From: Haplodiscus bocki
Taxonomy: Eukaryota
DNA: 64,000 bases
NCBI GenBank assembly: GCA_965655095.1
Contig: OZ296649.1
Coordinates: 93,434,001 to 93,498,000, forward strand
Direction: 5' to 3'
Part shown: positions 23,101-55,400 of the stretch, in pieces
How the letters are laid out: each line of letters starts with the position of its first letter
Numbering within the stretch: position 1 is the first letter of the stretch
Program-made: the position numbers and the translations under genes
The notes under the pieces: generated by a model
Databases searched by the model: none
Seen by the model: the letters and a program-made list of their open reading frames with translations, nothing else
Told to the model about the DNA's origin: nothing

Positions 23101-23715
23101 AGTACAGTAATTGCAAGTGCTCCTTCATTTTGGGCGACATTAGTTGAAAACAAGGGTTCGGAAAGGTAATCATTTAGGTTATGAATTTAAGACGAAGCAC
23201 GGCAATGGACTAGTAGCGGTCACAAAACAGGTGGTAGACGACAATATTTAATACGAACTGGAAATGGCCAGCGCCACGTTTCGCCCACCCGGAAAACTTT
23301 TGAAGGCATCAGAAAGCATTCGAATAACATACAAGAAGCAAGTAGAACTAGGCCATACGGTCACATAGATCGTCAAATACTCAGGCAAAAAATTTCTCAA
23401 TTGATAAAAATCGCCAATCAATCGTAAAACTCTTGACAAATAGAAAGCTTCCTCCGACGTCAACGTTACCAGTAAAGCCGGAAACTCCCGAGTCATTACA
23501 TTCTGCTGTCCTTAGTTGCTATTGAAAGGCTGCGGTCATCCTTTGGGCCCCCTTGTCACATTAAGATACAGATCTTCATGAAAGATTATGTAATAAGAAA
23601 GAAAATTAACTCAATGAGACCTTCTGTTTTTGCTGAGACAACTTAGTATTGTACTAATGTTTATCTTCTGCTAATACGAAGTTAAAGTTTAATATAGACG
23701 AGTTGAGAGGAAAGA

Positions 23716-24543
23716 ATGAAGGAGATGGAAAAAGGACTCAATAATTCTGACCATAAACCATGTTTAAATTTGAGGAGAGACAAGATGTATCTCGACCAAA
23801 TTGGTGTTTCCAGCCGTCACAACTTCGATCTCCAATCTATCACCGGGATGATAGTGTGTGCGTTATTTTCTGGTAAACATGGGCCTTCAATTTTCTGGAA
23901 GGTTTTGCGCAAATTCGTGGTTCATCCAGAAATAAATTACACGGTTCCTCTCTGGACAATTGAAGATATTGAATTTTTAGAAATGAAAACTCGTACAGGT
24001 TTGTGTCCACATTGCCCTCAAAAACTTATTGGAGGATTCAGCGGCATTCCCATGCTGATACGAGAGTGCTGTTGACTACTCTGGAAGAGAGTTTTACGTC
24101 AACCTACGGAGATTGATTCCGTGGGCAGTATGAGATTAAATCATACAGAACACGAGTGTTCCTTCTTGGATGCCGGAGAAAGGCTTCGACCTCTTATTGA
24201 TTCCATAAAAAGTCGTTAGGTCACATCTTCAATGCTCTCAAAAAAAGCAGACGCATATTACAAAATTGACCTTCCTGACTCAACACCGATGTCAACTTCA
24301 GAACTGAGCCGTTCGAAGAGGATGAAATACATTCAAACCGAGGTCTCTGATGAAATTTGTTACCTTCCGTTGAAAGGTGCAGATGATCCTCATCGTAGTA
24401 GTACCTGCTTTATGTTTCATGAAGTTTAGAGGGTTTTTCTGAACAAACAAACTAAAGAGAGCGATATAATTTTGACGCTGGTGTGGTTGAAAAATGCCCA
24501 TAACTACAATCAATTGACGTTGGCCAGTCGTGGCTTAAGTTAA
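23716..24543 (+). pseudogene. Degenerate coding segment of unknown family with a CxxC motif (representative copy, C subtype)
   Basis: Track ORFs 23716..24075 and 24232..24429 share a frame, and the intervening and downstream DNA stays in frame. This gives 276 codons with stops only at 24073, 24217, 24427 and 24541. It reads MKEMEKGLNN...GLCPHCPQKLIGG...YYKIDLPDSTPMSTSEL...EICYLPLKG...WLKNAHNYNQLT. Confidence 0.72.
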
Positions 24544-30500: not shown

Positions 30501-33500
30501 TGAAAAACGTTCGCGAACGACCACTCGAAAAAATCTAGAACGAAATTCGTTCCGCACGAACAACAATTGAACTTCATCCGACAACAAATGAAACAAGTTT
30601 CCCTGGAAGAAGTGAATGCGCAATCGGAATTATTACAGAAGAAAGATTTGGAAATTGAAGCCAGGAAAGTAGAAGAACTGTAATACCTTCGGATCTTATA
30701 ATCTTTACCACTTCAGCAACTCCACGGAAGCGGCTGACTTCCCGATAATGCACGAAGTGAACGGAGGTGATAAAGATCAGTGTGAAATGCTTTGACTAAA
30801 GCGACATATAGTTTGAGTGGCCGGAAGCTGTCGATTAGGGACTTGAGGGAATTCGTGGACGCGCTTCTTGACAAAGGCAAAAATGCCGAAAACACCGTAA
30901 AGTCAGTATTCTTTGCATGGTGTAATTCTTCGAGACTACTATGGGAAGATGATACGCAAAAGTGGCCAAGAGATTCCACTGAAATAGTCAACCCTAGAAT
31001 CTCGAAAAACAACAAAGTTCCAACATAGTTGTAGTTAACAAGAAAAACTTCATATCAAACCCATTTTACTGTACCAAACCATTAAAACCTTTTTTGTTTC
31101 AACTAATTGGACTGCGGTTTTGGAAGACCCAAAGAAAATTGGGCCAGCCATGTAGATAACTGTAAAAACGCATGATTCATTATTAATTTCAATTCAATAC
31201 CCTAAAACTTACATTTTTACTGAAACTCGGACAGCTCGCTCTAGCCCACTGATGAAAGGCAAAGGACAAATTTTTTATGCGACAACGCCTTTCGCAATGT
31301 CTCGTATTCGCTTATTCTCCTGTATGTGTAATAGGGTGAAAACTCTATTGAGTTGGTCACTAGCGGCAACGCTGAATTCGTTCCATGGTAGCTCCCCATC
31401 TTCAATTGTGGAGAACTATGTGAGTCGGCCTCTACACATTCTCTTGAGACAATTTCTTCCATTGTGTGTCAGGATTATCAAAAAAACTCTTTGCTAAAAG
31501 TTGATAAAAGTCAAAAAGACTGGCAAAAACATCTACCAGTGTTCTTTTTAACGAAGTTGGAGCAAAAAAGAAATTTGAAGACACATGTCGTTTCAGGTTC
31601 GAAGATGTTGCCGCCCAATGTTCCAAAAAGTTTCACAATAAACAACGCATAAATGAACATCGTGGGAAGAGACTGAATTTGACCGTTCACACTAGATTCT
31701 TGATTGATACCTCAAGTGTTAGACAGAAAAGAGAAACTAATCATGAGCCGGTTTTAAATTAACATTCTTCAATTCAGTCAGAATGTGTAAAACTGTCCCG
31801 GTGTTTACACTTGTATAGGTTTTTGACCAAAAAACAAAACGTTTTCAACTTCCAAGTTCTGACAGCTACAACGATGGTCCATATGGTGCCCCTCAAATTC
31901 GTATGTAACTGTGATGCCTATTCAAAAATCAAGATATCGCACGAAAAAGCATCAAAAAACAACATGGTAATACAATAAAGTACAGTAATTGCAAGTGCTC
32001 CTTCATTTTGGGCGACATTAGTTGAAAACAAGGGTTCGGAAAGGTAATCATTTAGGTTATGAATTTAAGACGAAGCACGGCAATGGACTAGTAGCGGTCA
32101 CAAAACAGGTGGTAGACGACAATATTTAATACGAACTGGAAATGGCCAGCGCCACGTTTCGCCCACCCGGAAAACTTTTGAAGGCATCAGAAAGCATTCG
32201 AATAACATACAAGAAGCAAGTAGAACTAGGCCATACGGTCACATAGATCGTCAAATACTAAGGCAAAAAATTTCTCAATTGATAAAAATCGCCAATCAAT
32301 CGTAAAACTCTTGACAAATAGAAAGCTTCCTCCGACGTCAACGTTACCAGTAAAGCCGGAAACTCCCGAGTCATTACATTCTGCTGTCCTTAGTTGCTAT
32401 TGAAAGGCTGCGGTCATCCTTTGGGCCCCCTTGTCACATTAAGATACAGATCTTCATGAAAGATTATGTAATAAGAAAGAAAATTAACTCAATGAGACCT
32501 TCTGTTTTTGCTGAGACAACTTAGTATTGTACTAATGTTTATCTACTGCTAATACGAAGTTAAAGTTTAATCTAGACGAGTTGAGAGGAAAGAATGAAGG
32601 AGATGGAAAAAGGACTCAATAATTCTGACCATAAACCATGTTTAAATTTGAGGAGAGACAAGATGTATCTCGACCAAATTGGTGTTTCCAGCCGTCACAA
32701 CTTCGATCTCCAATCTATCACCGGGATGATAGTGTGTGCGTTATTTTCTGGTAAACATGGGCCTTCAATTTTCTGGAAGGTTTTGCGCAAATTCGTGGTT
32801 CATCCAGAAATAAATTACACGGTTCCTCTCTGGACAATTGAAGATATTGAATTTTTAGAAATGAAAACTCGTACAGGTTTGTGTCCACATTGCCCTCAAA
32901 AACTTATTGGAGGATTCAGCGGCATTCCCATGCTGATACGAGAGTGCTGTTGACTACTCTGGAAGAGAGTTTTACGTCAACCTACGGAGATTGATTCCGT
33001 GGGCAGTATGAGATTAAATCATACAGAACACGAGTGTTCCTTCTTGGATGCCGGAGAAAGGCTTCGACCTCTTATTGATTCCATAAAAAGTCGTTAGGTC
33101 ACATCTTCAATGCTCTCAAAAAAAGCAGACGCATATTACAAAATTGACCTTCCTGACTCAACACCGATGTCAACTTCAGAACTGAGCCGTTCGAAGAGGA
33201 TGAAATACATTCAAACCGAGGTCTCTGATGAAATTTGTTACCTTCCGTTGAAAGGTGCAGATGATCCTCATCGTAGTAGTACCTGCTTTATGTTTCATGA
33301 AGTTTAGAGGGTTTTTCTGAACAAACAAACTAAAGAGAGCGATATAATTTTGACGCTGGTGTGGTTGAAAAATGCCCATAACTACAATCAATTGACGTTG
33401 GCCAGTCGTGGCTTAAGTTAAGAGGAAAGTCTCGAGACTTATTGGTCAAGAACCGTGGTAGTCTTCAACCAGGGACTGAAAAACGTTCGCGAACGACCAC

Positions 33501-33649
33501 TCGAAAAAATCTAGAACGAAATTCGTTCCGCACGAACAACAATTGAACTTCATCCGACAACAAATGAAACAAGTTTCCCTGGAAGAAGTGAATGCGCAAT
33601 CGGAATTATTACAGAAGAAAGATTTGGAAATTGAAGCCAGGAAAGTAGA

Positions 33650-36630
33650 AGAACTGTAATACCTTCGGATCTTATAATCTTTACCACTTCAGCAACTCCA
33701 CGGAAGCGGCTGACTTCCCGATAATGCACGAAGTGAACGGAGGTGATAAAGATCAGTGTGAAATGCTTTGACTAAAGCGACATATAGTTTGAGTGGCCGG
33801 AAGCTGTCGATTAGGGACTTGAGGGAATTCGTGGACGCGCTTCTTGACAAAGGCAAAAATGCCGAAAACACCGTAAAGTCAGTATTCTTTGCATGGTGTA
33901 ATTCTTCGAGACTACTATGGGAAGATGATACGCAAAAGTGGCCAAGAGATTCCACTGAAATAGTCAACCCTAGAATCTCGAAAAACAACAAAGTTCCAAC
34001 ATAGTTGTAGTTAACAAGAAAAACTTCATATCAAACCCATTTTACTGTACCAAACCATTAAAACCTTTTTTGTTTCAACTAATTGGACTGCGGTTTTGGA
34101 AGACCCAAAGAAAATTGGGCCAGCCATGTAGATAACTGTAAAAACGCATGATTCATTATTAATTTCAATTCAATACCCTAAAACTTACATTTTTACTGAA
34201 ACTCGGACAGCTCGCTCTAGCCCACTGATGAAAGGCAAAGGACAAATTTTTTATGCGACAACGCCTTTCGCAATGTCTCGTATTCGCTTATTCTCCTGTA
34301 TGTGTAATAGGGTGAAAACTCTATTGAGTTGGTCACTAGCGGCAACGCTGAATTCGTTCCATGGTAGCTCCCCATCTTCAATTGTGGAGAACTATGTGAG
34401 TCGGCCTCTACACATTCTCTTGAGACAATTTCTTCCATTGTGTGTCAGGATTATCAAAAAAACTCTTTGCTAAAAGTTGATAAAAGTCAAAAAGACTGGC
34501 AAAAACATCTACCAGTGTTCTTTTTAACGAAGTTGGAGCAAAAAAGAAATTTGAAGACACATGTCGTTTCAGGTTCGAAGATGTTGCCGCCCAATGTTCC
34601 AAAAAGTTTCACAATAAACAACGCATAAATGAACATCGTGGGAAGAGACTGAATTTGACCGTTCACACTAGATTCTTGATTGATACCTCAAGTGTTAGAC
34701 AGAAAAGAGAAACTAATCATGAGCCGGTTTTAAATTAACATTCTTCAATTCAGTCAGAATGTGTAAAACTGTCCCGGTGTTTACACTTGTATAGGTTTTT
34801 GACCAAAAAACAAAACGTTTTCAACTTCCAAGTTCTGACAGCTACAACGATGGTCCATATGGTGCCCCTCAAATTCGTATGTAACTGTGATGCCTATTCA
34901 AAAATCAAGATATCGCACGAAAAAGCATCAAAAAACAACATGGTAATACAATAAAGTACAGTAATTGCAAGTGCTCCTTCATTTTGGGCGACATTAGTTG
35001 AAAACAAGGGTTCGGAAAGGTAATCATTTAGGTTATGAATTTAAGACGAAGCACGGCAATGGACTAGTAGCGGTCACAAAACAGGTGGTAGACGACAATA
35101 TTTAATACGAACTGGAAATGGCCAGCGCCACGTTTCGCCCACCCGGAAAACTTTTGAAGGCATCAGAAAGCATTCGAATAACATACAAGAAGCAAGTAGA
35201 ACTAGGCCATACGGTCACATAGATCGTCAAATACTCAGGCAAAAAATTTCTCAATTGATAAAAATCGCCAATCAATCGTAAAACTCTTGACAAATAGAAA
35301 GCTTCCTCCGACGTCAACGTTACCAGTAAAGCCGGAAACTCCCGAGTCATTACATTCTGCTGTCCTTTGTTGCTATTGAAAGGCTGCGGTCATCCTTTGG
35401 GCCCCCTTGTCACATTAAGATACAGATCTTCATGAAAGATTATGTAATAAGAAAGAAAATTAACTCAATGAGACCTTCTGTTTTTGCTGAGACAACTTAG
35501 TATTGTACTAATGTTTATCTTCTGCTAATACGAAGTTAAAGTTTAATCTAGACGAGTTGAGAGGAAAGAATGAAGGAGATGGAAAAAGGACTCAATAATT
35601 CTGACCATAAACCATGTTTAAATTTGAGGAGAGACAAGATGTATCTCGACCAAATTGGTGTTTCCAGCCGTCACAACTTCGATCTCCAATCTATCACCGG
35701 GATGATAGTGTGTGCGTTATTTTCTGGTAAACATGGGCCTTCAATTTTCTGGAAGGTTTTGCGCAAATTCGTGGTTCATCCAGAAATAAATTACACGGTT
35801 CCTCTCTGGACAATTGAAGATATTGAATTTTTAGAAATGAAAACTCGTACAGGTTTGTGTCCACATTGCCCTCAAAAACTTATTGGAGGATTCAGCGGCA
35901 TTCCCATGCTGATACGAGAGTGCTGTTGACTACTCTGGAAGAGTTTTACGTCAACCTACGGAGATTGATTCCGTGGGCAGTATGAGATTAAATCATACAG
36001 AACACGAGTGTTCCTTCTTGGATGCCGGAGAAAGGCTTCGACCTCTTATTGATTCCATAAAAAGTCGTTAGGTCACATCTTCAATGCTCTCAAAAAAAGC
36101 AGACGCATATTACAAAATTGACCTTCCTGACTCAACACCGATGTCAACTTCAGAACTGAGCCGTTCGAAGAGGATGAAATACATTCAAACCGAGGTCTCT
36201 GATGAAATTTGTTACCTTCCGTTGAAAGGTGCAGATGATCCTCATCGTAGTAGTACCTGCTTTATGTTTCATGAAGTTTAGAGGGTTTTTCTGAACAAAC
36301 AAACTAAAGAGAGCGATATAATTTTGACGCTGGTGTGGTTGAAAAATGCCCATAACTACAATCAATTGACGTTGGCCAGTCGTGGCTTAAGTTAAGAGGA
36401 AAGTCTCGAGACTTATTGGTCAAGAACCGTGGTAGTCTTCAACCAGGGACTGAAAAACGTTCGCGAACGACCACTCGAAAAAATCTAGAACGAAATTCGT
36501 TCCGCACGAACAACAATTGAACTTCATCCGACAACAAATGAAACAAGTTTCCCTGGAAGAAGTGAATGCGCAATCGGAATTATTACAGAAGAAAGATTTG
36601 GAAATTGAAGCCAGGAAAGTAGAAGAGCTG
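33650..36630 (+). repeat. Extra tandem duplicate of the C monomer
   Basis: ORFs at 30713, 31252 and 32594 recur at +2976 (33689, 34228, 35570). The private variant TTCTTCCATTG is shared only by ~31455 and ~34431. Confidence 0.85.
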
Positions 36631-38216
36631 TAACACCTTCGGTTCTTATATTCTTTACCTTTTCAGCAACTCCACGGAAGCGGCTGACTTGCCGATAATG
36701 CACGAAGTGAACGGAGGTGATAAAGATCAGTGTGAAATGCTTTGACTAAAGCGACATATAGTTTGAGTGGCCGGAAGCTGTCGATTAGGGACTTGAGGGA
36801 ATTCGTGGACGCGCTTCTTGACAAAGGCAAAAATGCCGAAAACACCGTAAAGTCAGTATTCTTTGCATGGTGTAATTCTTCGAGACTACTATGGGAAGAT
36901 AATACCCAAAAGTTGCCAAGAGAGGCCACAAAAATAGTCAACCCTAGAATCTCGAAAAACAACAAAGTTCCAACATCGTTGTAGTTAACAAGAAAATCTT
37001 CATATCAAACCTATTTTACTGTACCAAACCATTAAAACCTTTTTTGAGTTTGTTTTCAATTCAATACCCTAAAACTTACATTTTTACTAAAACTCGGACA
37101 GCTCGCTCTAGCCCACTGATGAAAGGCAAAGGACAAATTTTCTATGCGACAATGCCTTTCGCAATGTCTCGTATTCGCTTATTCTCCTATATGTGTCATA
37201 GGGTTAAGACTTTATTGAGTTGGTCACTAGCGGCAACGCTGAATTGGTTCCATGGTAGCTCCCCATCTTTAATTGTGAAGAATTATGTGGGTCGGCATCT
37301 ACACATTCTCTTGAGACAATTTCTTCTATTGTGTGTCAGGCTTATCAAAAAAACCCTTTGCTAAAAGTTGATAAAAGTCAAAAAGACTGGCAAAAATAAG
37401 TATCAGTGTTTTTTCAACGAAGTTGGAGCAAAAAAGCTAAAATTGGAGACACATGATGTCGTTTCAGGTTCGAAGATGTTGCTACCCAATGTTCCAAAAA
37501 GTTTCACAATAAACAACGCATAAATGAACATCGTGGGAAGAGGCTGAATTTGACCGTTCACACTAGATTCTTGATTGATACATCAAGTGTTAGACAGAAA
37601 AGAGAAACTAAGCATGAGCCGGTTTAAAACTAACATTCTTCCATTCAGTCAGAATGTGTAAAAGTGTCCCGGTGTTTACATTTGTAAAGGTTTTTGACCA
37701 AAAAACAAAACGTTTTTGAACTTCAAAGTTGTTGACCGCTACAACGATGGTCCATATGGTGCCCCTCAAAGTCGTATGTAACTGTGATGCCTTTTCAAAA
37801 ATCAAGATATCGCACGAAAAAGCATCAAAAAACAACATGGTAACACAAATAAGTACAGTAATCGCAAGTACTCCTTCATTTTGGGCGACAATGGTTCAAA
37901 ACAAGTGTCAGGAAAGGTAATCAAGTTGTGTTATGAAATGATGACGAGGCACAGCAATGGACTAGTAGCGGTCACAAAACAGGTGGTAGAAATTTAATAC
38001 GAACTGGAAGTGGCCAACGCCACGTTTCGCCCATCCGGAAAAAATTTGAAGGCATCAGAAAGCTTTCGAATAACATACAATAAGTAAGTACAACTAGGCC
38101 CTAGGATCACATAGATCGTCAAATACTCAGGAAAAAAATTTCTCAAATGATAAAAATCGCCAATCAATCGTAAAACTCGTGACAAATAGAAAGCTTCCTC
38201 CGACGTCAACGTTATC

Positions 38217-39528
38217 AGTAAAGCCGGAAAAACCCGAGTCATTACATTCTGCTGTCCTTAGTTGCTATTGAATTGCTGCGGTTCTCCGTTGGGCCCCGTT
38301 GTCACATTAGGATACAGAGCTTCATGAAAGATTATGTAAAAGGAACGAAGTTTAACTCAATGCGACCGTCTGTTTTAGCTGAAGCAACTCAGTATTGTAC
38401 TAATGTTTATTCTGCTAATACGAAGTTAAAGTTTAATATAGACGAGTTGAGAGGAAAGAATGAAGGAGATGGAAAAAGGACACAATAATTCTGACCATAA
38501 ACCATGTTTAAATTTGAGGAGAGACAAGATGTATCTCGACCAAATTGGTGTTTCCAGCCGTCACAACTTCGATCTCCAATCTATCACCGGGATGATAGTG
38601 TGAGTCGGCCTCTACACATTCTCTTGAGACAATTTCTTCTATTGTGTGTCAGGCTTATCAAAAAAACTCTTTGCTAAAAGTTGATAAAAGTCAAAAAGAC
38701 TGGCAAAAACATCTACCAGTGTTCTTTTAACGAAGTTGGAGCAAAAAAGAAATTTGAAGACACATGTCGTTTCAGGTTCGAAGATGTTGCCGCCCAATGT
38801 TCCAAAAAGTTTCACAATAAACAACGCATAAATGAACATCGTGGGAAGAGACTGAATTTGACCGTTCACACTAGATTCTTGATTGATACCTCAAGTGTTA
38901 GACAGAAAAGAGAAACTAATCATGAGCCGGTTTTAAATTAACATTCTTCAATTCAGTCAGAATGTGTAAAACTGTCCCGGTGTTTACACTTGTATAGGTT
39001 TTTGACCAAAAAACAAAACGTTTTTCAACTTCCAAGTTCTGACAGCTACAACGATGGTCCATATGGTGCCCCTCAAATTCGTATGTAACTGTGATGCCTA
39101 TTCAAAAATCAAGATATCGCACGAAAAAGCATCAAAAAACAACATGGTAATACAATAAAGTACAGTAATTGCAAGTGCTCCTTCATTTCGGGCGACATTA
39201 GTTGAAAACAAGGGTTCGGAAAGGTAATCATTTAGGTTATGAATTTAAGACGAGGCACGGCAATGGACTAGTAGCGGTCACAAAACAGTTGGTAGACGAC
39301 AATATTTAATACGAACTGGAAATGGCCAACGCCACGTTTCGCCCACCCGGAAAACTTTTGAAGGCATCAGAAAGCATTCGAATAACATACAAGAAGCAAG
39401 TAGAACTAGGCCATACGGTCACATAGATCGTCAAATACTCAGGCAAAAAATTTCTCAATTGATAAAAATCGCCAATCAATCGTAAAACTCTTGACAAATA
39501 GAAAGCTTCCTCCGACGTCAACGTTACC
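38217..39528 (+). repeat. Internally deleted monomer (1,312 bp; about 1.66 kb missing)
   Basis: The junction GATGATAG-TGTG-AGTCGGCC at 38591-38610 joins two monomer positions that are normally ~1.67 kb apart (compare 17878 and 19551). The MLFFEIL marker ORF is missing from this unit. Confidence 0.95.
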
Positions 39529-40427
39529 AGTAAAGCCGGAAACTCCCGAGTCATTACATTCTGCTGTCCTTTGTTGCTATTGAAAGGCTGCGGTCATCCT
39601 TTGGGCCCCCTTGTCACATTAAGATACAGATCTTCATGAAAGATTATGTAATAAGAAAGAAAATTAACTCAATGAGACCTTCTGTTTTTGCTGAGACAAC
39701 TTAGTATTGTACTAATGTTTATCTTCTGCTAATACGAAGTTAAAGTTTAATCTAGACGAGTTGAGAGGAAAGAATGAAGGAGATGGAAAAAGGACTCAAT
39801 AATTCTGACCATAAACCATGTTTAAATTTGAGGAGAGACAAGATGTATCTCGACCAAATTGGTGTTTCCAGCCGTCACAACTTGGATCTCCAATCTATCA
39901 CCGGGATGATAGTGTGTGCGTTATTTTCTGGTAAACATGGGCCTTCAATTTTCTGGAAGGTTTTGTGCAAATTCGTGGTTCATCTAGAAATAAATTACAC
40001 GGTTCCTCTCTGGACAATTGAAGATATTGAATTTTTAGAAATGAAAACTCGTACAGGTTTGTGTCCACATTGCCCTCAAAAACTTATTGGAGGATTCAGC
40101 GGCATTCCCATGCTGATACGAGAGTGCTGTTAACTACTCTGGAAGAGTTTTACGTCAACCTACGGAGATTGATTCCGTGGGCAGTATGAGATTAAATCAT
40201 ACAGAACACGAGTGTTCCTTCTTGGATGCCGGAGAAAGGCTTCGACCTCTTATTGATTCCATAAAAAGTCGTTAGGTCACATCTTCAATGCTCTCAAAAA
40301 AAGCAGACGCATATTACAAAATTGACCTTCCTGACTCAACACCGATGTCAACTTCAGAACTGAGCCGTTCGAAGAGGATGAAATACATTCAAACCGAGGT
40401 CTCTGATGAAATTTGTTACCTTCCGTT

Positions 40428-43400
40428 TAAGGATGCAATTGATTCTCATCGTAGTAGTATCTGCTTCATGTCTTTAGAATTTCATACGGCTTTTTAGAAT
40501 GCAAAGATTACAAACGCACTAACTGAAAAAAGTGACATATTTAGGATGCCGGTCAGGTTGAAGAACACCCATAATTATAATCAATTAACGTGAAAAAATT
40601 GCGCTTAACTTATGAGAAGATTTTGTCTCACGACTGTTTCTTGTTCAGAAACTGTTGTATTCTGCAGCCAAGGATTGAAAAACGTGCGCCAGAGACCACT
40701 CGAAAAAAATGTAGAACGAGCGATTGGTTCTGCATGAACAATTAAATTTCATTCGAAAGCAAACGAAACAAGAACTTTCCCTGAAAGGAGTGAATGCGAA
40801 ACTGGAATCATTACAGAAAAAAAGATTTACAAATTAAAGTAAGGAAAGTAGAAGAGTAGAAGAGTAGAAGAGCGGTACTACCTTCAGTCCTTATAATCTT
40901 TACCACTTCAGCAACTCCACGAAAGCGGCTGACTCTCCAATAATGCACAAAGTAAAAGGAGGTGATACAAACCAGTACGAGTTGCTTTGACTGAAGCGAC
41001 AATTAGTTTGAGTGGCCGGAAGCTGTCGGTTAGGGACTTGAGTGAATTCGTGGATGCGCTTCTCGACAAAGAAGGCAAAATTGGCGAACACACCGTAAAG
41101 TCACTATTCTTTGCATGGTGTATTTCTTCGAGACTACTATGGGAAGATGATACCCAAAAGTTGCCAAAAGATGCCACTAAAATAGTCAACCATAGAATCT
41201 CGAAAAATAACAAAGTTCCAACATCGTTGTAGTTAACAAGAAAATTTTCAAACCAAACCTATTTTACTATACCAAACTAAAAAAAAACTTTTTTGTTTCA
41301 AATAATTGGACTGCGGTTTTGCAAGACCCAAAAAAAATAAGGCCTACCATGTAAAAACCTGTAAATACGTATGATTCATTATGATTCTCAATTCAATACC
41401 CTAAAACTTACATTTTTACTGAAACTCGGACAGCTCGCTCTAGCCCACTGATGAAAGGCAAAGGACAAATTTTTTATGCGACAACGCCTTTCACAATGTC
41501 TCGTATTCGCTTATTCTCCAGTATGTGTAATAGGGTTAAAACTTTATTGAGTTGGTCACTAGCGGCCACGCTGAATCCGTTCCATGGTAGCTCCCCAACT
41601 TTAATTGTGGAGAACTATGTGAGTCGGCCTCTACACATTCTCTTGAGACAATTTCTTCTATTGTGTGTCAGGCTTATCAAAAAAACCCTTTGCTAAAAGT
41701 TGATAAAAGTCAAAAAGACTGGCAAAAATAAGTATCAGTGTTTTTTCAACGAAGTTGGAGCAAAAAAGCTAAAATTGGAGACACATGATGTCGTTTCAGG
41801 TTCGAAGATGTTGCTACCCAATGTTCCAAAAAGTTTCACAATAAACAACGCATAAATGAACATCGTGGGAAGAGGCTGAATTTGACCGTTCACACTAGAT
41901 TCTTGATTGATACCTCAAGTGTTAGACAGAAAAGAGAAACTAATCATGAGCCGGTTTTAAATTAACATTCTTCAATTCAGTCAGAATGTGTAAAACTGTC
42001 CCGGTGTTTACACTTGTATAGGTTTTTGACCAAAAAACAAAACGTTTTTCAACTTCCAAGTTCTGACAGCTACAACGATGGTCCATATGGTGCCCCTCAA
42101 ATTCGTATGTAACTGTGATGCCTATTCAAAAATCAAGATATCGCACGAAAAAGCATCAAAAAACAACATGGTAATACAATAAAGTACAGTAATTGCAAGT
42201 GCTCCTTCATTTTGGGCGACATTAGTTGAAAACAAGGGTTCGGAAAGGTAATCATTTAGGTTATGAATTTAAGACGAAGCACGGCAATGGACTAGTAGCG
42301 GTCACAAAACAGGTGGTAGACGACAATATTTAATACGAACTGGAAATGGCCAACGCCGCGTTTCGCCCACCCGGAAAACTTTTGAAGGCATCGAAAGGAT
42401 TCGAATAACATACAAGAAGCAAGTAGAACTAGGCCATATGGTCACATAGATCGTCAAATACTCAGGCAAAAAATTTCTCAATTGATAAAAATAGCCAATC
42501 AATCGTAAAACTCTTGACAAATAGAAAGCTTCCTCCGACGTCAACGTTATCAGTAAAGCCGGAAACTCCCGAGTCATTACATTCTGCTGTCCTTAGTTGC
42601 TATTGAAATGCTGCGTTTATCCTTTGGGCCCCGTTGTCACATTAAGATACAGATCTTCATGAAAGATTATGTAATAAGAAAGAAAACTAACTCAATGCGA
42701 CCTTCTGTTTTTGCTGAGACAACTTAGTATTGTACGAATGTTTATTTTCTGCTAATACGAAGTTAAAGTTTAATAAAAGACGAGCTCAGAGGAAAGAATG
42801 AAGGAATTGAAAAAAGGATTCAATAATTCTGACCATAAACCATGTTTGAATTTGAGGAGAGAACAAAGATGTATCTCGACCAAATTGGTGTTTCCAGCCG
42901 TCACAGCTTCAATCTCCAATCTATCACCGGGATGATAGTGTGCGCGTTATCTTCCGGTAAACATGGGCTTTCAATTTTCTGGAAGGTTTTGTGCAAATCC
43001 GTGGTTCATCTAGAAATAAATTACACGGTTCCTCCCTGGACAAATGAAGATAATGAATTTTTAGAAATCAACACTCGAACAGGTTTGTGTCCACATTGCC
43101 CTCCAAAGCTTATCGGAGGATTCAGCGGCATTCCCATGCTGATACGAGAGTGCTGTTGACTACTCTGGAGGTGAGTGTTACGTCAATCTACGGAGATTGA
43201 TTCCGTGGGCAGTATGAGATTAAATCATACAGAAGACTAGTGTCCCTTCTTGGATGCCGGAGAAAAGCTTCAAACTCTTAATGATTGCATAATAAGTCGT
43301 TAGGTCACTTCTTCAATGATCTCAAAAAAAGCAGACGGCATATTACAAAATTGACCTTCCTGACTCAACACCGATGTCAACTTCAGAACTGAGCCGTTCG

Positions 43401-46400
43401 AAAAGAAAGAAATACAGTCAAACCGAGGTCTCTGATGAAATTTGTTACCTTCCGTTTAAGGATGCAATTGATCCTCATCGTAGTAGTATCTGCTTCATGT
43501 CTTTAGAATTTCATACGGCTTTTTAGAATGCAAAGATTACAAACGCACTAATTGAAGAAAGTAACATATTTAGGATGCCGGTAAGGTTGAAGAACGCCCA
43601 TTATTATAAGCAATTAACGTGAAAAAATTGCGCTTAACTTATGAGAAGATTTTGTCTCACGAGTGTTTCTTGTTCAGAAACTGTTGTATTCGACAGCCAA
43701 GGATTGAAAAACGTGCGCCAGAGACCACTCGAAAAAAAAGTAGAACGAGCGATTGGTTTTGCACGAACAATTGAATTTCATTCGAAAGCAAATGAAACAA
43801 GAAGTTTCCCTGAAAGGAGTGAATGCGAAACTGGAATCATTACAGAAAAAAAGATTTACAAATTAAAGTAAGGAAAGTAGAAGAGCGGTACTACCTTCAG
43901 TCCCTATAATCTTTACCACTTCAGCAACTCCACGAAAGCGGCTGACTCTCCGATAATGCACAAAGTAAAAGGAGGTGATAAAAACCAGTACGAGTTGCTT
44001 TGACTGAAGCGACAATTAGTTTGAGTGGCCGGAAGCTGTCGGTTAGGGACTTGAGTGAATTCGTGGATGCGCTTCTCGACAAAGAAGGCAAAATTGGCGA
44101 ACACACCGTAAAGTAACTATTCTTTGCATGGTGTATTTCTTCGAGACTACTATGGGAAGATGATACCCAAAAGTTGCCAAAAGATGCCACTAAAATAGTC
44201 AACCATAGAATCTCGAAAAACAACAAAGTTCCAGCATCGTTGTAGTTAACAAGAAAATTTTCAAACCAAACCTATTTTACTATACCAAACTAAAAAAAAA
44301 CTTTTTTGTTTCAAATAATTGGACTTCTGTTTTGCAAGACCCAACAAAAATAAGGCCTACCATGTAAAAACCTGTAAATACGTATGATTCATTATGATTC
44401 TCAATTCAATACCCTAAAACTTACATTTTTACTGAAACTCGGACAGCTCGCTCTAGCCCACTGATGAAAGGCAAAGGACAAACTTTTTATGCGACAACGC
44501 CTTTCGCAATGTCTCGTATTCGCTTTTTCTCCTGTATGTGTAAAAGGGTGAAAACTTTATTGAGTTGGTCACTAGCGGCAACGCTGAATCCGTTCCATGG
44601 TAGCTCCCCAACTTTAATTGTGGAGAACTATGTGAGTCGGCCTCTACACATTCTCTTTTCAATTCCATCTCTTGAGACAATTTCTTCTATTGTGTGTCAG
44701 GCTTATCGAAATATCAAGAAAAAATTGTTTGCTAAAAGTCAAAAATAGTGGCAAAAATAAGTATCAGTGTTTCTTTAACGAAATTGGAGCAAAAAAGCTG
44801 ACATTGAAGACCCATGATGTCGTTTCAGGTTCGAACATGTTGCTGCCCAATGTTCCAAAAAGTTTCACAATAAACAAAGCATAAACGAACATCGTGAGAA
44901 GAGGCTGTTTTTGACCGTTCACACTAGATTATTGATTGATACATCAAATGTAAGACAGAAAAGAGAAATTAAGCATGAGCCGGTTTTAAACTAACATTCT
45001 TCCATTCAGTCAATGTGTAAAAGTGTCCCTGTGTTTACACTTGTATAGGTTTTTGACCAAAAAACAAAAGTTTTTTGAACTTCCAAGTTCTGACCGCAAC
45101 AACGATGGTCCATATGGTGCCTCTCAACTTCGTATGCAACTGTGCTGCCTTTTCAAAAAAATCAAGATATCGCACGAAAAAGCATCAAAAAACAACCAAC
45201 CTGGTAACACAATTAAGTATTCGATGACGAGGCACGGCAAAGGACTAGTACCGGTCACAAAACAGGTGGTAGACGACAAAAGTTGAAACGAACTGGAATT
45301 GGCCAACGCCACGTTTCGCCCATCCGGAAAACTTTTGAAGGCATCAGAAAGCATTCGAATAACATACGAGAAGTAAGTATAACTAGGCCATACGATCACA
45401 TAGATCGTCAAATACTCAAGAAAATTATTTTTCAAATGATAAAAATTGCCAATCAATCGTAAAACTCTTGACAAATAGAAAGCTTCCTCCGACGTCAACG
45501 TTATCAGTAAAGCCGGAAACTCCCGAGTCATTACATTCTGCTGTCCTTAGTTGCTATTGAAATTCTGCGTTTATCCTTTGGGCCCCGTTGTCACATTAAG
45601 ATACAGATCTTCATGAAAGATTATGTAATAAGAAAGAAAACTAACTCAATGCGACCTTCTGTTTTTGCTGAGACAACTTAGTATTGTACGAATGTTTATT
45701 TTCTGCTAATACGAAGTTAAAGTTTAATAAAAGACGAGTTCAGAGGAAAGAATGAAGGAAATGGAAAAAGGACTCAATAATTCTGACCATAAACCATGTT
45801 TGAATTTGAGGAGAGAACAAAGATTTATCTCGACCAAATTGGTGTTTCCAGCCGTCACAACTTCAATCTCCAATCTATCACCGGGATGATAGTGTGCGCG
45901 TTATCTTCTGGTAAACATGGGCTTTCAATTTTCTGGAAGGTTTTGTGCAAATTCGTGGTTCATCTAGAAATAAATTACACGGTTCCTCCCTGGACAAATG
46001 AAGATATTGAATTTTTAGAAATCAACACTCGTACAGGTTTGTGTCCACATTGCCCTCCAAAGCTTATCGGAGGATTCAGCGGCATTCCCATGCTGATACG
46101 AGAGTGCTGTTGACTACTCTGGAGTTGAGTGTTACGTCAATCTACGAAGATTGATTCCGTGGGCAGTATGAGATTAAATCATACAGAAGACTAGTGTCCC
46201 TTCTTGGATGCCGGAGAAAAGCTTCAAACTCTTAATGATTGCATAATAAGTCGTTAGGTCACTTCTTCAATGATCTCAAAAAAAGCAGACGGCATATTAC
46301 AAAATTGACCTTCCTGACTCAACACCGATGTCAACTTCAGAACTGAGCCGTTCGAAAAGAAAGAAATACAGTCAAACCGAGGTCTCTGATGAAATTTGTT

Positions 46401-49400
46401 ACCTTCCGTTTAAGGATGCAATTGATCCTCATCGTAGTAGTATCTGCTTCATGTCTTTAGAATTTCATACGGCTTTTTAGAATGCAAAGATTACAAACGC
46501 ACTAATTGAAGAAAGTAACATATTTAGGATGCCGGTAAGGTTGAAGAACGCCCATTATTATAAGCAATTAACGTGAAAAAATTGCGCTTAACTTATGAGA
46601 AGATTTTGTCTCACGAGTGTTTCTTGTTCAGAAACTGTTGTATTCGACTGCCAAGGATTGAAAAACGTGCGCCAGAGACCACTCGAAAAAAAAGTAGAAC
46701 GAGCGATTGGTTTTGCACGAACAATTGAATTTCATTCGAAAGCAAATGAAACAAGAAGTTTCCCTGAAAGGAGTGAATGCGAAACTGGAATCATTACAGA
46801 AAAAAAGATTTACAAATTAAAGTAAGGAAAGTAGAAGAGCGGTACTACCTTCAGTCCCTATAATCTTTACCACTTCAGCAACTCCACGAAAGCGGCTGAC
46901 TCTCCGATAATGCACAAAGTAAAAGGAGGTGATAAAAACCAGTACGAGTTGCTTTGACTGAAGCGACAATTAGTTTGAGTGGCCGGAAGCTGTCGGTTAG
47001 GGACTTGAGTGAATTCGTGGATGCGCTTCTTGACAAAAGCAATATTGCCGAAAACACCGTAAAGTCAGTATTCTTTGCATGGTGTATTTCTTCGAGACTA
47101 CTATGGGAAGATGATACGCAAAAGTTGCCAAGAGATGCCACTGAAATAGTCAACCCTAGAATCTCGAAAAACAACAAAGTTCCAACATCGTTGTAGTTAA
47201 CAAGAAAATTTTCAAACCAAACCTATTTTACTATACCAAACTAAAAAAAAACTTTTTTGTTTCAAATAATTGGACTTCTGTTTTGCAAGACCCAAAAAAA
47301 AATAAGGCCTACCATGTAAAAACCTGTAAATACGTATGATTCATTATGATTCTCAATTCAATACCCTAAAACTTACATTTTTACTGAAACTCGGAAAGCT
47401 CGCTCTAGCCCACTGATGAAAGGCAAAGGACAAACTTTTTATGCGACAACGCCTTTCGCAATGTCTCGTATTCGCTTTTTCTCCTGTATGTGTAAAAGGG
47501 TGAAAACTTTATTGAGTTGGTCACTAGCGGCAACGCTGAATCCGTTCCATGGTAGCTCCCCAACTTTAATTGTGGAGAACTATGTGAGTCGGCCTCTACA
47601 CATTCTCTTTTCAATTCCATCTCTTGAGACAATTTCTTCTATTGTGTGTCAGGCTTATCGAAATATCAAAAAAAAATTGTTTGCTAAAAGTCAAAAATAG
47701 TGGCAAAAATAAGTATCAGTGTTTCTTTAACGAAATTGGAGCAAAAAAGCTGACATTGAAGACACATGATTTCGTTTCAGGTTCGAACATGTTGCTGCCC
47801 AATGTTACAAAAAGTTTCACAATAAACAAAGCATAAACGAACATCGTGAGAAGAGGCTGTTTTTGACCGTTCACACTAGATTATTGATTGATACATCAAA
47901 TGTAAGACAGAAAAGAGAAATTAAGCATGAGCCGACTTTAAACTAACATTCTTCCATTCAGTCAATGTGTAAAAGTGTCCCTGTGTTTACACTTGTATAG
48001 GTTTTTGACCAAAAAACAAAAGGTTTTTGAGCTTCCAAGTTCTGACCGCAACAACGATGGTCCATATGGTGCCTCTCAACTTCGTATGCAACTGTGCTGC
48101 CTTTTCAAAAAAATCAAGATATCGCACGAAAAAGCATCAAAAAACAACCAACCTGGTAACACAATTAAGTATTCGATGACGAGGCACGGCAAAGGACTAG
48201 TACCGGTCACAAAACAGGTGGTAGACGACAAAAGTTAAAACGAACTGGAATTGGCCAACGCCACGTTTCGCCCATCCGGAAAACTTTTGAAGGCATCAGA
48301 AAGCATTCGAATAACAAACGAGAAGTAAGTATAACTAGGCGATACGATCACATAGATCGTCAAATACTCAAGAAAATTTTTTTTCAAATGATAAAAATTG
48401 CCAATCAATCGTAAAACTCTTGACAAATAGAAAGCTTCCTCCGATGTCAACGTTATCAGTAAAGCCGGAAAAACCCGAGTCATTACATTCTGCTGTGCTT
48501 AGTTGCTATTGAATTGCTGCGTTCATCCTTTGGGCCCCGTTGTCACATTAAGATACAGATCTTCAAGGAAGATTATGTAATAAGAAAGAAAATTAACTCA
48601 ATGCGACCTTCTGTTTTTGCTGAGACAACTTAGTATTGTACGAATGTTTATTTTCTTCTAATAAGAAGTTAAAGTTTAATAAAAGACGAGTTCAGAGGAA
48701 AGAATGAAGGAAATGGAAAAAGGACTCAATAATTCTGACCATAAACCATGTTTGAATTTGAGGAGAGAACAAAGATTTATCTCGACCAAATTGGTGTTTC
48801 CAGCCGTCACAACTTCAATCTCCAATCTATCACCGGGATGATAGTGTGCGCGTTATCTTCTGGTAAACATGGGCTTTCAATTTTCTGGAAGGTTTTGTGC
48901 AAATTCGTGGTTCATCTAGAAATAAATTACACGGTTCCTCCCTGGACAAATGAAGATATTGAATTTTTAGAAATCAACACTTGTACAGGTTTGTGTCCAC
49001 ATTGCTCTCCAAAGCTTACCGGAGGATTCAGCGGCATTCCCATGCTGATACGAGAGTGCTGTTGACTACTCTGGAAGTGAGTGTTACGTCAATCTACGAA
49101 GATTGATTCCGTGGGCAGTATGAGATTAAATCATACAGAAGACTAGTGTCCCTTCTTGGATGCCGGAGAAAAGCTTCAACCTCTTAAAGATTGCATAATA
49201 AGTCGTTAGGTCACTTCTTCAATGATCTCAAAAAAAGCAGACGGCATATTACAAAATTGACCTTCCTGACTCAACACCGATGTCAACTTCAGAACTGAGC
49301 CGTTCGAAAAGAAAGAAATACAGTCAAACCGAGGTCTCTGATGAAATTTGTTACCTTCGATTCAATGATGCAAGTGATCCTCATCGTAGTAGTGTCTGCT

Positions 49401-52400
49401 TCATGTCTTTAGAATTTCATACGCCTCTTTAGAATGCAAAGACTACAAACGCACTAACTGAAGAAAGTGACATATTTAGGATGCCGGTAAGGTTGAAGAA
49501 CGCCCATTAATATAATCAATTACCGTGAAAAAATTGCGCTTAATTTATGAGAAGATTTTGTCTCACGAGTGTTTCTTGTTCAGAAACTGTTGTATTCGAC
49601 AGCCAAGGATTGAAAAACGTGCGCCAGAGACCACTCGAAAAAAAAGTAGAACGAGCGATTGGTTTTGCACGAACAATTGAATTTCATTCGAAAGCAAATG
49701 AAACAAGAAGTTTCCCTGAAAGGAGTGAATGCGAAACTGGAATCATTACAGAAAAAAAGATTTACAAATTAAAGTAAGGAAAGTAGAAGAGTAGAAGAGC
49801 GGTACTACCTTCAGTCCTTATAATCTTTACCACTTCAGCAACTCCACGAAAGCGGCTGACTCTCCAATAATGCACAAAGTAAAAGGAGGTGATACAAACC
49901 AGTACGAGTTGCTTTGACTGAAGCGACAATTAGTTTGAGTGGCCAGAAGCTGTCGATTAGGGACTTGAGTGAATTCGTGGATGCGCTTCTTGACAAAGAA
50001 GGCAAAATTGGCGAACACACCGTAAAGTCACTATTCTTTGCATGGTGTATTTCTTCGAGACTACTATGGGAAGATGATACCCAAAAGTTGCCAAAAGATG
50101 CCACTAAAATAGTCAACCCTAGAATCTCGAAAAATAACAAAGTTCCAACATCGTTGTAGTTAACAAGAAAATCTTCATATCAAACCTATTTTACAGTACC
50201 AAACCATAAAAACCTTTTTTGTTTCAACTAATTGGACTGCGGTTTTGGAAGACCCAAAGAAAATTGGGCCAGCCATGTAGATAACTGTACATACGCATGA
50301 TTCATTATTAATTTCAATTCAATACCCTAAAACTTACATTTTTACTGAAACTCTGACAGCTCGCTATAGCCCACTGATGAAAGGCAAAGGACAAATTTTT
50401 TATGCGACAACGCCTTTCACAATGTCTCGTATTCATTTATTCTCCAGTATGTGTAATAGGGTTAAAACTTTATTGAGTTGGTCACTAGCGGCCACGCTGA
50501 ATTCGTTCCATGGTAGCTCCCCATCTTTAATTGTGGAGAACTATGTGAGTCGGCCTCCACACATTCTCTTGAGACAATTTGTTCTATTGTGTGTCAGGCT
50601 TATCAAAAAAACTCTGCTAAAAGTTGATAAAAGTCAAAAAGACTGGCAAAAATAACTACCAGTGTTCTTTTAACGAAGTTGGAGCAAAAAAGATGAATTT
50701 GAAGACACATGATGTCGTTTCAGGTTCGAAGATGTTGCTGCCCAATGTTCCAAAAAGTTTCACAATAAACAACGCATGAATGAACATCGTGGGAAGAGGC
50801 TGAATTTGACCGTTCACACTAGATTCTTGATTGATACCTCAAGTGTTAGACAGAAAAGAGAAACTAATCATGAGCCGGTTTTAAATTAACATTCTTCCAT
50901 TCAGTCAGAATGTGTAAAACTGTCCCGGTGTTTACACTTGTAAAGGTTTTTGACCAAAAAACAAAACGTTTTTCAACTTCCAAGTTCTGAGAGCTACAAC
51001 GATGGTCCATATGGTGCCTCCTAAATTGGTATGCAACTGTGCTGCCTTTTCAAAAAAATCAAGATATCGCACGAAAAAGCATCAAAAAACAACCTGGTAA
51101 TACAATTAAGTACAGTAATTGCAAGTGCTCCTTCATTTTGGGCGACATTAGTTGAAAACAAGGGTTCGTAAAGGTAATCATTTAGGTTATGAATGTAAGA
51201 GGAGGCACGGCAATGGACTAGTAGTGGTCACAAAACAGGTGGTAGACGACAATATTTAATACGAACTGGAAATGGCCAGCGCCACGTTTCGCCCACCCGG
51301 AAAACTTTTGAAGGCATCAGAAAGCATTCGAATAACATACAAGAAGCAAGTAAAACTAGGCCATACGGTCACATAGATCGTCAAATACTCAGGCAAAAAA
51401 TTTCTCAAATGATAAAAATCGCCAATCAATCGTAAAACTCTTGACAAATAGAAAACTTCCTCCGACGTCAACGTTATCAGTAAAGCCGGAAACTCCCGAG
51501 TCATTACATTCTGCTGTCCTTAGTTGCTATTGAAATGCTGCGTTTATCCTTTGGGCCCCGTTGTCACATTAAGATACAGATCTTCATGAAAGATTATGTA
51601 ATAAGAAAGAAAACTAACTCAATGCGACCTTCTGTTTTTGCTGAGACAACTTAGTATTGTACGAATGTTTATTTTCTGCTAATACGAAGTTAAAGTTTAA
51701 TAAAAGACGAGCTCAGAGGAAAGAATGAAGGAATTGAAAAAAGGATTCAATAATTCTGACCATAAACCATGTTTGAATTTGAGGAGAGAACAAAGATGTA
51801 TCTCGACCAAATTGGTGTTTCCAGCCGTCACAGCTTCAATCTCCAATCTATCACCGGGATGATAGTGTCTGCGTTATCTTCTGTCTTCTGGTAAACATAG
51901 GCTTTCAATTTTCCCGAAGGTTTTGCACAAATTCGTGGTCCATCTAGAAATAAATTACACGGTTCCTCCCTGGACAAATGAAGATATTGAATTTTTAGAA
52001 ATCAACACTCGTACAGGTTTGTGTCCACATTGCCCTCCAAAGCTTACCGGAGGATTCAGCGGCATTCCCATGCTGATACGAGAGTGCTGTTGACTACTCT
52101 GGAAGTGAGTGTTACGTCAATCTACGAAGATTGATTCCGTGGGCAGTATGAGATTAAATCATACAGAAGACAAGTGTCCCTTCTTGGATGCCGGAGAAAA
52201 GCTTCAACCTCTTAAAGATTGCATAATAAGTCGTTAGGTCACTTCTTCAATGATCTCAAAAAAAGCAGACGGCATATTACAAAATTGACCTTCCTGACTC
52301 AACACCGATGTCAACTTCAGAACTGAGCCGTTCGAAAAGAAAGAAATACAGTCAAACCGAGGTCTCTGATGAAATTTGTTACCTTCCATTCAATGATGCA

Positions 52401-55400
52401 AGTGATCCTCATCGTAGTAGTGTCTGCTTCATGTCTTTAGAATTTCATACGCCTCTTTAGAATGCAAAGACTACAAACGCACTAACTGAAGAAAGTGACA
52501 TATTCAGGATGCCGGTAAGGTTGAAGAACGCCCATTAATATAATCAATTACCGTGAAAAAATTGCGCTTAATTTATGAAAAGATTTTGTCTCACGAGTGT
52601 TTCTTGTTCAGAAACTGTTGTATTCGACAGCCAAGGATTGAAAAACGTGCGCCAGAGACCACTCGAAAAAAAAAGTAGAACGAGCGATTGGTTTTGCACG
52701 AACAATTGAATTTCATTCGAAAGCAAATGAAACAAGAAGTTTCCCTGAAAGGAGTGAATGCGAAACTGGAATCATTACAGAAAAAAAGATTTACAAATTA
52801 AAGTAAGGAAAGTAGAAGAGCGGTACTACCTTCAGTCCCTATAATCTTTACCACTTCAGCAACTCCACGAAAGCGGCTGACTCTCCGATAATGCACAAAG
52901 TAAAAGGAGGTGATAAAAACCAGTACGAGTTGCTTTGACTGAAGCGACAATTAGTTTGAGTGGCCGGAAGCTGTCGATTAGGGACTTGAGTGAATTCGTG
53001 GATGCGCTTCTCGACAAAGAAGGCAAAATTGGCGAACACACCGTAAAGTCACTATTCTTTGCATGGTGTATTTCTTCGAGACTACTATGGGAAGATGATA
53101 CCCAAAAGTTGCCAAAAGATGCCACTAAAATAGTCAACCATAGAATCTCGAAAAACAACAAAGTTCCAACATCGTTGTAGTTAACAAGAAAATTTTCAAA
53201 CCAAACCTATTTTACTATACCAAACTAAAAAAAAACTTTTTTGTTTCAAATAATTGGACTTCTGTTTTGCAAGACCCAAAAAAAATAAGGCCTACCATGT
53301 AAAAACCTGTAAATACGTATGATTCATTATGATTCTCAATTCAATACCCTAAAACTTACATTTTTACTGAAACTCGGAAAGCTCGCTCTAGCCCACTGAT
53401 GAAAGGCAAAGGACAAACTTTTTATGCGACAACGCCTTTCGCAATGTCTCGTATTCGCTTTTTCTCCTGTATGTGTAAAAGGGTGAAAACTTTATTGAGT
53501 TGGTCACTAGCGGCAACGCTGAATCCGTTCCATGGTAGCTCCCCAACTTTAATTGTGGAGAACTATGTGAGTCGGCCTCTACACATTCTCTTTTCAATTC
53601 CATCTCTTGAGACAATTTCTTCTATTGTGTGTCAGGCTTATCGAAATATCAAAAAAAAATTGTTTGCTAAAAGTCAAAAATAGTGGCAAAAATAAGTATC
53701 AGTGTTTCTCTAACGAAATTGGAGCAAAAAAGCTGACATTGAAGACACATGATTTCGTTTCAGGTTCGAACATGTTGCTGCCCAATGTTCCAAAAAGTTT
53801 CACAATAAACAAAGCATAAACGAACATCGTGAGAAGAGGCTGTTTTTGACCGTTCACACTAGATTATTGATTGATACATCAAATGTAAGACAGAAAAGAG
53901 AAATTAAGCATGAGCCGGTTTTAAACTAACATTCTTCCATTCAGTCAATGTGTAAAAGTGTCCCTGTGTTTACACTTGTATAGGTTTTTGACCAAAAAAC
54001 AAAAGGTTTTTGAACTTCCAAGTTCTGACCGCAACAACGATGGTCCATATGGTGCCTCTCAACTTCGTATGCAACTGTGCTGCCTTTTCAAAAAAATCAA
54101 GATATCGCACGAAAAAGCATCAAAAAACAACCAACCTGGTAACACAATTAAGTATTCGATGACGAGGCACGGCAAAGGACTAGTACCGGTCACAAAACAG
54201 GTGGTAGACGACAAAAGTTAAAACGAACTGGAATTGGCCAACGCCACGTTTCGCCCATCCGGAAAACTTTTGAAGGCATCAGAAAGCATTCGAATAACAA
54301 ACGAGAAGTAAGTATAACTAGGCGATACGATCACATAGATCGTCAAATACTCAAGAAATTTTTTTTTCAAATGATAAAAATTGCCAATCAATCGTAAAAC
54401 TCTTGACAAATAGAAAGCTTCCTCCGATGTCAACGTTATCAGTAAAGCCGGAAAAACCCGAGTCATTACATTCTGCTGTGCTTAGTTGCTATTGAATTGC
54501 TGCGTTCATCCTTTGGGCCCCGTTGTCACATTAAGATACAGATCTTCAAGGAAGATTATGTAATAAGAAAGAAAATTAACTCAATGCGACCTTCTGTTTT
54601 TGCTGAGACAACTTAGTATTGTACGAATGTTTATTTTCTTCTAATAAGAAGTTAAAGTTTAATAAAAGACGAGTTCAGAGGAAAGAATGAAGGAAATGGA
54701 AAAAGGACTCAATAATTCTGACCATAAACCATGTTTGAATTTGAGGAGAGAACAAAGATTTATCTCGACCAAATTGGTGTTTCCAGCCGTCACAACTTCA
54801 ATCTCCAATCTATCACCGGGATGATAGTGTGCGCGTTATCTTCTGGTAAACATGGGCTTTCAATTTTCTGGAAGGTTTTGTGCAAATTCGTGGTTCATCT
54901 AGAAATAAATTACACGGTTCCTCCCTGGACAAATGAAGATATTGAATTTTTAGAAATCAACACTCGTACAGGTTTGTGTCCACATTGCTCTCCAAAGCTT
55001 ACCGGAGGATTCAGCGGCATTCCCATGCTGATACGAGAGTGCTGTTGACTACTCTGGAAGTGAGTGTTACGTCAATCTACGAAGATTGATTCCGTGGGCA
55101 GTATGAGATTAAATCGTACAGAAGACTAGTGTCCCTTCTTGGATGCCGGAGAAAAGCTTCAACCTCTTAAAGATTGCATAATAAGTCGTTAGGTCACTTC
55201 TTCAATGATCTCAAAAAAAGCAGACGGCATATTACAAAATTGACCTTCCTGACTCAACACCGATGTCAACTTCAGAACTGAGCCGTTCGAAAAGAAAGAA
55301 ATACAGTCAAACCGAGGTCTCTGATGAAATTTGTTACCTTCCATTCAATGATGCAAGTGATCCTCATCGTAGTAGTGTCTGCTTCATGTCTTTAGAATTT

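Follow-up and report, generated by a model that had tools for sequence, protein, structure and literature searches.

Two diverged versions of one block in a tandem array of Haplodiscus bocki, probably derived from two neighbouring paralogues

How can the units of one tandem array be homogenised over most of their length and yet carry, in a single short block, two versions that differ at about a fifth of their sites and change over at one point of the array? This question is raised by a locus on contig OZ296649.1 of Haplodiscus bocki, which we analysed in a stretch of 64,000 nucleotides (hereafter the window; Table 1) with 60 kb added on each side. The array occupies approximately 93,416,300-93,526,970 on the contig (roughly from -17.7 to +93.0 kb when counted as in the window), i.e., it continues beyond the window edges for 17.7 kb on the left and 29 kb on the right and amounts to ~110 kb in total. 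Its units of 2.9-3.0 kb are arranged head-to-tail at one locus, which is a macrosatellite-like arrangement; the sequence flanking the array is unique on either side, and the 184 kb examined (the window plus the flanks) are free of N. When the block was used as a query against the 1.5-Gb assembly, all of the 37 candidates were located at the array (18 copies each of versions 1 and 2, plus a divergent copy at the end), and relatives of the unit were not found elsewhere in its own assembly by the genome searches. The units were numbered U00-U37 (38 aligned rows): U01-U18 have version 1, U19 is truncated and has no block, and U20-U37 have version 2. In U19, which had been overlooked in an earlier note on this DNA, a deletion of ~1.7 kb took out the block, and its junction near 38601 shows a 4-base microhomology (TGTG). 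An Rfam search of positions 36000-46500 of the window gave no matches.

Table 1. Coordinates of the features in the window (position 1 is its first nucleotide).
Feature	Position	Strand	Remark
Window	1..64000	+	wholly within the ~3-kb tandem array; Haplodiscus bocki OZ296649.1, 93,434,001-93,498,000
First version-1 block in the window	913..1452	+	
Last version-1 block, unit U18	36224..36758	+	
Truncated unit U19	37943..39248	+	1306 bp; block absent; between the array halves
Boundary unit U20	39249..42272	+	head left-type, block version 2, tail left-type
U18-U20 exchange tract	40145..40427 (start approximate)	+	283 bp identical; stops at the first diagnostic site
First block with version 2, in U20	40428..41003	+	
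Version-2 opening tract, ~215 bp	40428..40643 (end approximate)	+	close to copy A
Reading-frame remnant 5' to the block	42839..43297	+	~153 codons, 3 stops; stop-free in copy A
Other version-2 blocks in the window (7)	start 43457, 46411, 49363, 52391, 55346, 58382, 61401		
Dispersed-repeat piece	44814..45022	.	resembles (~70%) dozens of loci located on other contigs; within every unit

The block is ~560 bases long, and its two versions differ at ~22% of the sites. The abrupt mid-array switch described in the earlier note is borne out: version 1 is present in 13 of 13 copies to the left of 40428 and version 2 in eight of eight copies from there on, with the identity to the copy at 40428 being 92-96% among the version-2 copies and 72-73% for the version-1 copies. 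Painting of 92 diagnostic substitutions over the whole array gave 18 copies of version 1 and then 18 of version 2 with no interleaving. The same note was also right in describing the block as more diverged than the rest of the unit; namely, in a profile of 120-column windows, the left-right distance was 0.18-0.31 in the five windows of the block vs 0.06-0.12 in the 21 windows outside, and the smallest left-right distance was 0.15-0.27 inside vs 0.00-0.06 outside. Between the two versions, the distance was 0.28-0.31 over the first 215 bp of the block and 0.17-0.21 over the remainder. In both parts of the block, trees split the left from the right units with a branch support of 99-100%, whereas the tree upstream of the block mixed left and right units and forced three label changes. 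The switch is hence real in the assembly, sharp, and far from chance. Some version-2 blocks have an 8-bp unit, AGTAGAAG, in triplicate (at 40847-40872, 55765-55790, and 61820-61845), which marks a sub-lineage.

It is very improbable that the switch is an artefact, in which haplotypes or arrays consisting wholly of version 1 and wholly of version 2 were joined at 40.4 kb. The switch is indeed absolute and lies beside the odd truncated unit U19, and no contig from the sequencing runs bridges the boundary; the contigs of the four runs (two samples, one study) carry both versions but are too short to reach across it, while single contigs do cover the junctions from copy A through the truncated head B to U01 at the left end of the array. 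A haplotype join, however, predicts about half the depth for each version, and the depth in X1 and X3 fits the full assembled number instead. When the copy number was estimated as the contig depth divided by that of the single-copy A (31 in X1 and 47 in X3), a version-1 piece gave 8.9 (X1) and 9.6 (X3) vs 9.8 assembled copies, and a version-2 word gave 7.7 (X1) and 7.2 (X3) vs seven assembled units, although depth is not copy number, three of the 14 rows were ~3-6 times above the assembled count, and X2 was high throughout. The three over-high rows are probably explained by other letters of the contigs that were missing from the comparison. Furthermore, a join does not account for the boundary unit, which runs left-right-left instead of switching once, for the single locus with unique flanks and an unbroken sequence, or for the presence of both versions in both samples. 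A haplotype or array join is thus unlikely, and the contig depth, rough as it is, argues against it. In the second sample (X4), the depth of version 1 in the region 36000-42500 was much above that of the version-2 pieces, and the depth at 38604-38820 was close to nil, which may point to another make-up of the array in that sample.

Outside the block, the two halves of the array have been exchanging sequence. There are 50 identical tracts of at least 150 bp between left and right units, even between U02 and U36; nonetheless, none of the 50 covers any of the five 100-bp bins of the block, where no run of identity exceeds 32 bp. Between units of the same half, such tracts are as frequent over the block as in the rest of the unit. 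Recent three-unit duplications are also seen within the halves (U12-U14 with U15/U16/U18 at 99.6-99.8%; U23/U25/U28 and U26/U29 at 99.5-99.9%), and no near-identical ones were found across the boundary. The within-half distances in the block (0.03-0.06) are no higher than elsewhere, so that it does not qualify as a mutation hot spot, and faster local mutation is ruled out. The array shows both patterns of a neutral island of divergence under concerted evolution: copies that are alike outside the block and diverged within it, and exchange tracts that avoid the block or halt at its edge. Gene conversion declines with mismatches and indels, with a threshold that can be as high as 20% (PMC3728101), and the loss of conversion with divergence is established (PMC3728101, PMC3924837). 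The absence of mixing in the block is the pattern expected from conversion failing above ~20% divergence; it is likely, on this analysis, that the block is now too divergent for conversion, with 20-30% mismatch plus indels blocking the pairing.

What, then, made the versions diverge? The earlier note had read many of the changes as synonymous in one frame and proposed that the versions diverged while still functional. In that frame, the differences fall on codon positions 1, 2, and 3 in almost equal numbers (37, 39, and 34). The codon examples that it quoted are selections from single copies: the ESDI word of version 2 occurs in four of eight copies, the NYNQLT word of version 2 in one of eight, and the NYNQLT word of version 1 in five of 13; moreover, the three quoted words are in a common frame in version 1 and not in version 2. 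The dN/dS in the proposed frame came to 1.23 and 1.38, a result that by the note's own account speaks against its reading. In a frameshift-corrected frame, which follows the stop-poorest path through the frameshifts and is hence the one most favourable to coding, dN/dS was 0.73-1.19 in six of six pairs between the versions, with all intervals spanning 1. We also used fixed differences alone, by which later decay is removed; 18.5 of the 68 fixed differences were synonymous vs 19.1±3.4 by permutation. An omega of 0.5 predicts ~30 synonymous fixed differences, and omega of 0.5 or below is rejected (P 0.002-0.005), while 0.7 is compatible with the counts (P 0.07-0.11). A three-base (lag-3) spacing of substitutions, which is a frame-free test, was absent in 15 of 15 comparisons. 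P values below 0.05 were obtained in three of 24 frame tests in a first set (0.002, 0.032, and 0.046) and in two of eight in the fixed-difference set (0.024 and 0.040), none of them in the path proposed in the earlier note and none consistent between pairs. Indel lengths were multiples of three in three of the five indels common to the comparisons between versions vs 13 of 109 within the array (P=0.014), but P becomes 0.11 without an ambiguous indel of 12/15/16 nt.

In addition, all 16 copies of the block listed have stops and frameshifts. The array does not resemble a selected island of intact paralogues (neofunctionalised, opsin type), in that the block copies are broken and show no synonymous excess; nor was purifying selection, with dN/dS well below 1, detected between the versions as two active transposon or virus strains would have it. 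Purifying selection between the versions is largely refuted, and the differences between them resemble those of unconstrained DNA and not of working genes, suggesting that the divergence was mostly neutral. Hand-picked synonymous codons in a decayed frame, we caution, do not show selection.

The unit itself nevertheless probably descends from a coding sequence, as judged from remnants of an open frame, while no homologue was found in our searches. Copy A, a relative of the unit at the left end of the array, has an open frame of 250 codons (flank piece L005:2964-3716); none of 200 first-order resamples matched this length, the plus strand of copy A being stop-poor, whereas one of three flank controls also had a long frame (211 codons). 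The register of this frame is stop-poor in other lineages of the array as well. Unit U02 has a stop-free frame of 149 aa from an ATG (L005:8505-8957), the same stretch of which is stop-free in copy A, and this frame is the gene call P0001 in a public assembly, with a singleton cluster to itself. Over the whole remnant frame (~420 codons), which was picked after the fact, omega between copy A and version 2 was 0.72 (0.54-0.98, P=0.032) and 0.78 (P=0.067).

Searches for the parent gene gave the following results. Pfam showed nothing at the curated cut-off for 18 six-frame read-throughs, and for 10 open frames its sole match was a sub-threshold PHD in a neighbouring array. Word-based protein searches, in which the 250-aa frame and two alignments were compared with longer proteins only, found no homologue; a full HMMER scan of 1.84 billion representatives, the one search that also covered proteins of near length, gave a single match, P0001, which is letter-for-letter the array's own U02 frame. 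An Atlas search had no usable match (best 0.86), none of 52 pattern matches in viral contigs was confirmed, and an AlphaFold model of the frame was unusable (pLDDT 37.6). Homology to known mobile elements or viruses, or dispersed copies, was accordingly not found, a blank that weighs little for a decayed frame. Two weak genome matches (E 0.07 and 0.5) were rejected as chance; one is off-frame in what we take, by its motifs, to be an LTR-retrotransposon pol region, and the other is near what we likewise take to be a LINE remnant.

These remnants bear on the proposal that the versions diverged as working genes, either as two active copies or as two strains of something mobile or viral, and became inactive once captured. 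With a fast-evolving protein, dN/dS near 1 would be possible, and the remnant frame, the tendency of indel lengths to multiples of three, and the omega of 0.72-0.78 between copy A and version 2 are all on the side of this proposal. We regard it as quite unlikely, nonetheless, because the versions show no excess of synonymous differences with omega of 0.5 rejected, their frames differ from each other, and no relative is known from elsewhere in the genome or from the databases searched. Early coding constraint is possible somewhere in the family, but the comparison of the two versions itself does not exhibit it. The active copies or strains named in the earlier note as the source are likewise not supported: dN/dS is near 1, no relative was found elsewhere in the assembly, and equally diverged relatives are present at the ends of the array.

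These unique relatives are copy A and the truncated head B on the left, and the tail Z of U37 on the right. The identity of copy A to the array is 75-80%, and the distances are 0.23 for A-B, 0.27-0.30 for B-array, 0.17-0.22 for Z-array, and 0.20-0.29 for A-array; the distances of the end copies (17-30%) are hence in the same range as those between the versions (0.17-0.31). The distance between copy A and version 2 drops from ~0.19 to 0.07-0.13 exactly on the left edge of the block; over the first ~215 bp it amounts to 11-14%, vs 20% immediately before and 27% immediately after. In terms of mismatches, 23 of 214 sites in this tract differ vs 91 of 456 before it (P=0.003) and 89 of 334 after it (P=4e-6), and a tree of the first ~215 bp groups copy A with version 2. 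At the other end, version 2 in the last unit is followed by ~165 bp of array-type sequence and then by the unique tail Z. Version 1 was also considered as the block of paralogue B, which is disfavoured; the stretch from the head of B to the first block is 11-13% from other units and not 27-30%. A very high-copy dispersed repeat (L005:1000-1330), with a depth more than 2000 times that of single copy, abuts the left end of copy A.

We consider it probable, at roughly two chances in three (0.68), that the versions trace back to a pair of old, adjacent paralogues, which recombined unequally to give a chimeric unit that was then amplified. The starting state would have been a decaying gene present as an old tandem cluster of at least four paralogues, already mosaic, of which the unique copies at both ends of the array would be the surviving members. 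A crossover on each side of the block, or one long conversion, may have transferred the right-end paralogue's block to the amplified unit, and this incoming block would already have been a mosaic with its first 215 bp common to copy A. Unequal exchange would then have enlarged each half, with version 2 spreading leftwards, and short conversions presumably keep the rest of the unit alike across the boundary and halt at the block, as the observed pattern of tracts suggests. Version 2 is likelier than version 1 to be the intruding block, and we infer the donor and the direction of transfer by distance and position only. Neither a separately preserved head of the version-2 donor nor a separately preserved block of B is present. 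Weak hints of past coding constraint, namely, the lean of indel lengths to threes, the A-version 2 omega below 1, and the few low P values of the frame tests, are among the points against this explanation, as are the array-type sequence before Z and the lack of a contig across the boundary. The progenitor reading of the earlier note thus survives in one part, i.e., an array from at least two long-diverged copies joined by recombination, and falls in the other, i.e., divergence under coding constraint.

Alternatively, the island might have arisen in place: two early tandem copies exchanged everything but the block, where clustered indels halted conversion, and each later seeded one half of the array, so that a crossover from a separate end paralogue is dispensed with. 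The block has five indels, one of 12-16 nt, the remainder of the unit is homogenised, and the mechanism is described (PMC3728101). We find this unlikely, since it leaves unexplained why a tract of version 2 beginning exactly at the block edge is 11% from copy A, and why the last unit has a unique tail whose divergence equals that of the block's second half.

Under the preferred origin from two neighbouring paralogues, the array works like an instance of known concerted evolution, namely, a neutral island of divergence in a macrosatellite-like array. Units of D4Z4 are 3.3 kb and near-identical, with a working DUX4 frame. Hybrid D4Z4 alleles (PMC3599962) are similar to this array in having units of macrosatellite size and two unit types after exchange, but those types stem from arrays on chromosomes 4 and 10, whereas here a single locus supplied both types, which are 22% apart within one 560-bp block. 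A diverged region between copies homogenised elsewhere is likewise seen in the GOT1 paralogues of Tigriopus (PMC3728101; reviewed in PMC3924837), and an island of divergence under conversion in the tandem copies of HMA4 (bioRxiv 10.1101/2025.10.29.685298). Those islands concern two or three working genes, and some are read as selected; in contrast, this array has 36 broken copies in two spatial halves and no sign of selection. In Drosophila melanogaster, Sdic (PMC7475035) is a chimeric repeat formed between older flanking genes, and its conversion tracts track array position with common boundaries along the unit, both as in this array; Sdic is, however, young, coding, expressed, and under selection, while every copy is broken here. 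A literature search on the combined features of the pattern found no matching paper, though the pattern may have been reported all the same.

No new gene, element, or function is shown by the array. It would be, rather, an unusually clean natural record of array growth, in which old end paralogues stand beside a chimeric amplified unit; also, exchange crosses a divergence of 5-12% and not of 20-30%, which makes the array a possible test case for the limit of conversion in a non-model animal. There is a very small chance that selection at the RNA level holds the halves apart, with small RNAs directed against an unrecognised orphan gene or element that exists in two variants. If so, both versions of a putative 560-bp targeting block would be maintained while the remainder of the unit is homogenised, and the array would be one of a cluster of element fragments amplified in tandem.

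Several features were noticed in the neighbourhood. A second array (L010:4265-9869; 98265-103869 in the numbering of the window) consists of four units of 1.4 kb (92-95%), all of which have a minus-strand frame of 150-165 aa showing a weak PHD-finger match under the cut-off (E=4e-4); we assume that it resembles an amplified piece of LINE ORF1. A third array, from L011:2189 to the end of L012, has at least seven units of 2.54 kb at 96-99.6% and begins with a copy at 85% and a fragment at 68%, so that divergent copies are again found at an array end. Between the arrays, the minus strand of L010:2068-2758 has frames with candidate transposon motifs and no Pfam hit; the motifs look to us like a BED finger and a hAT dimerisation end, and the stretch is presumably a decayed hAT transposon. 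About 10 kb to the left of the main array, a minus-strand frame (L004:1702-2130) has no Pfam hit and is possibly an exon of a host gene, its end resembling, we presume, the first part of a tubulin-glutamylase (TTLL) gene. Finally, L001:3960-5780 is an old satellite of ~130 bp with copies 74-82% alike.
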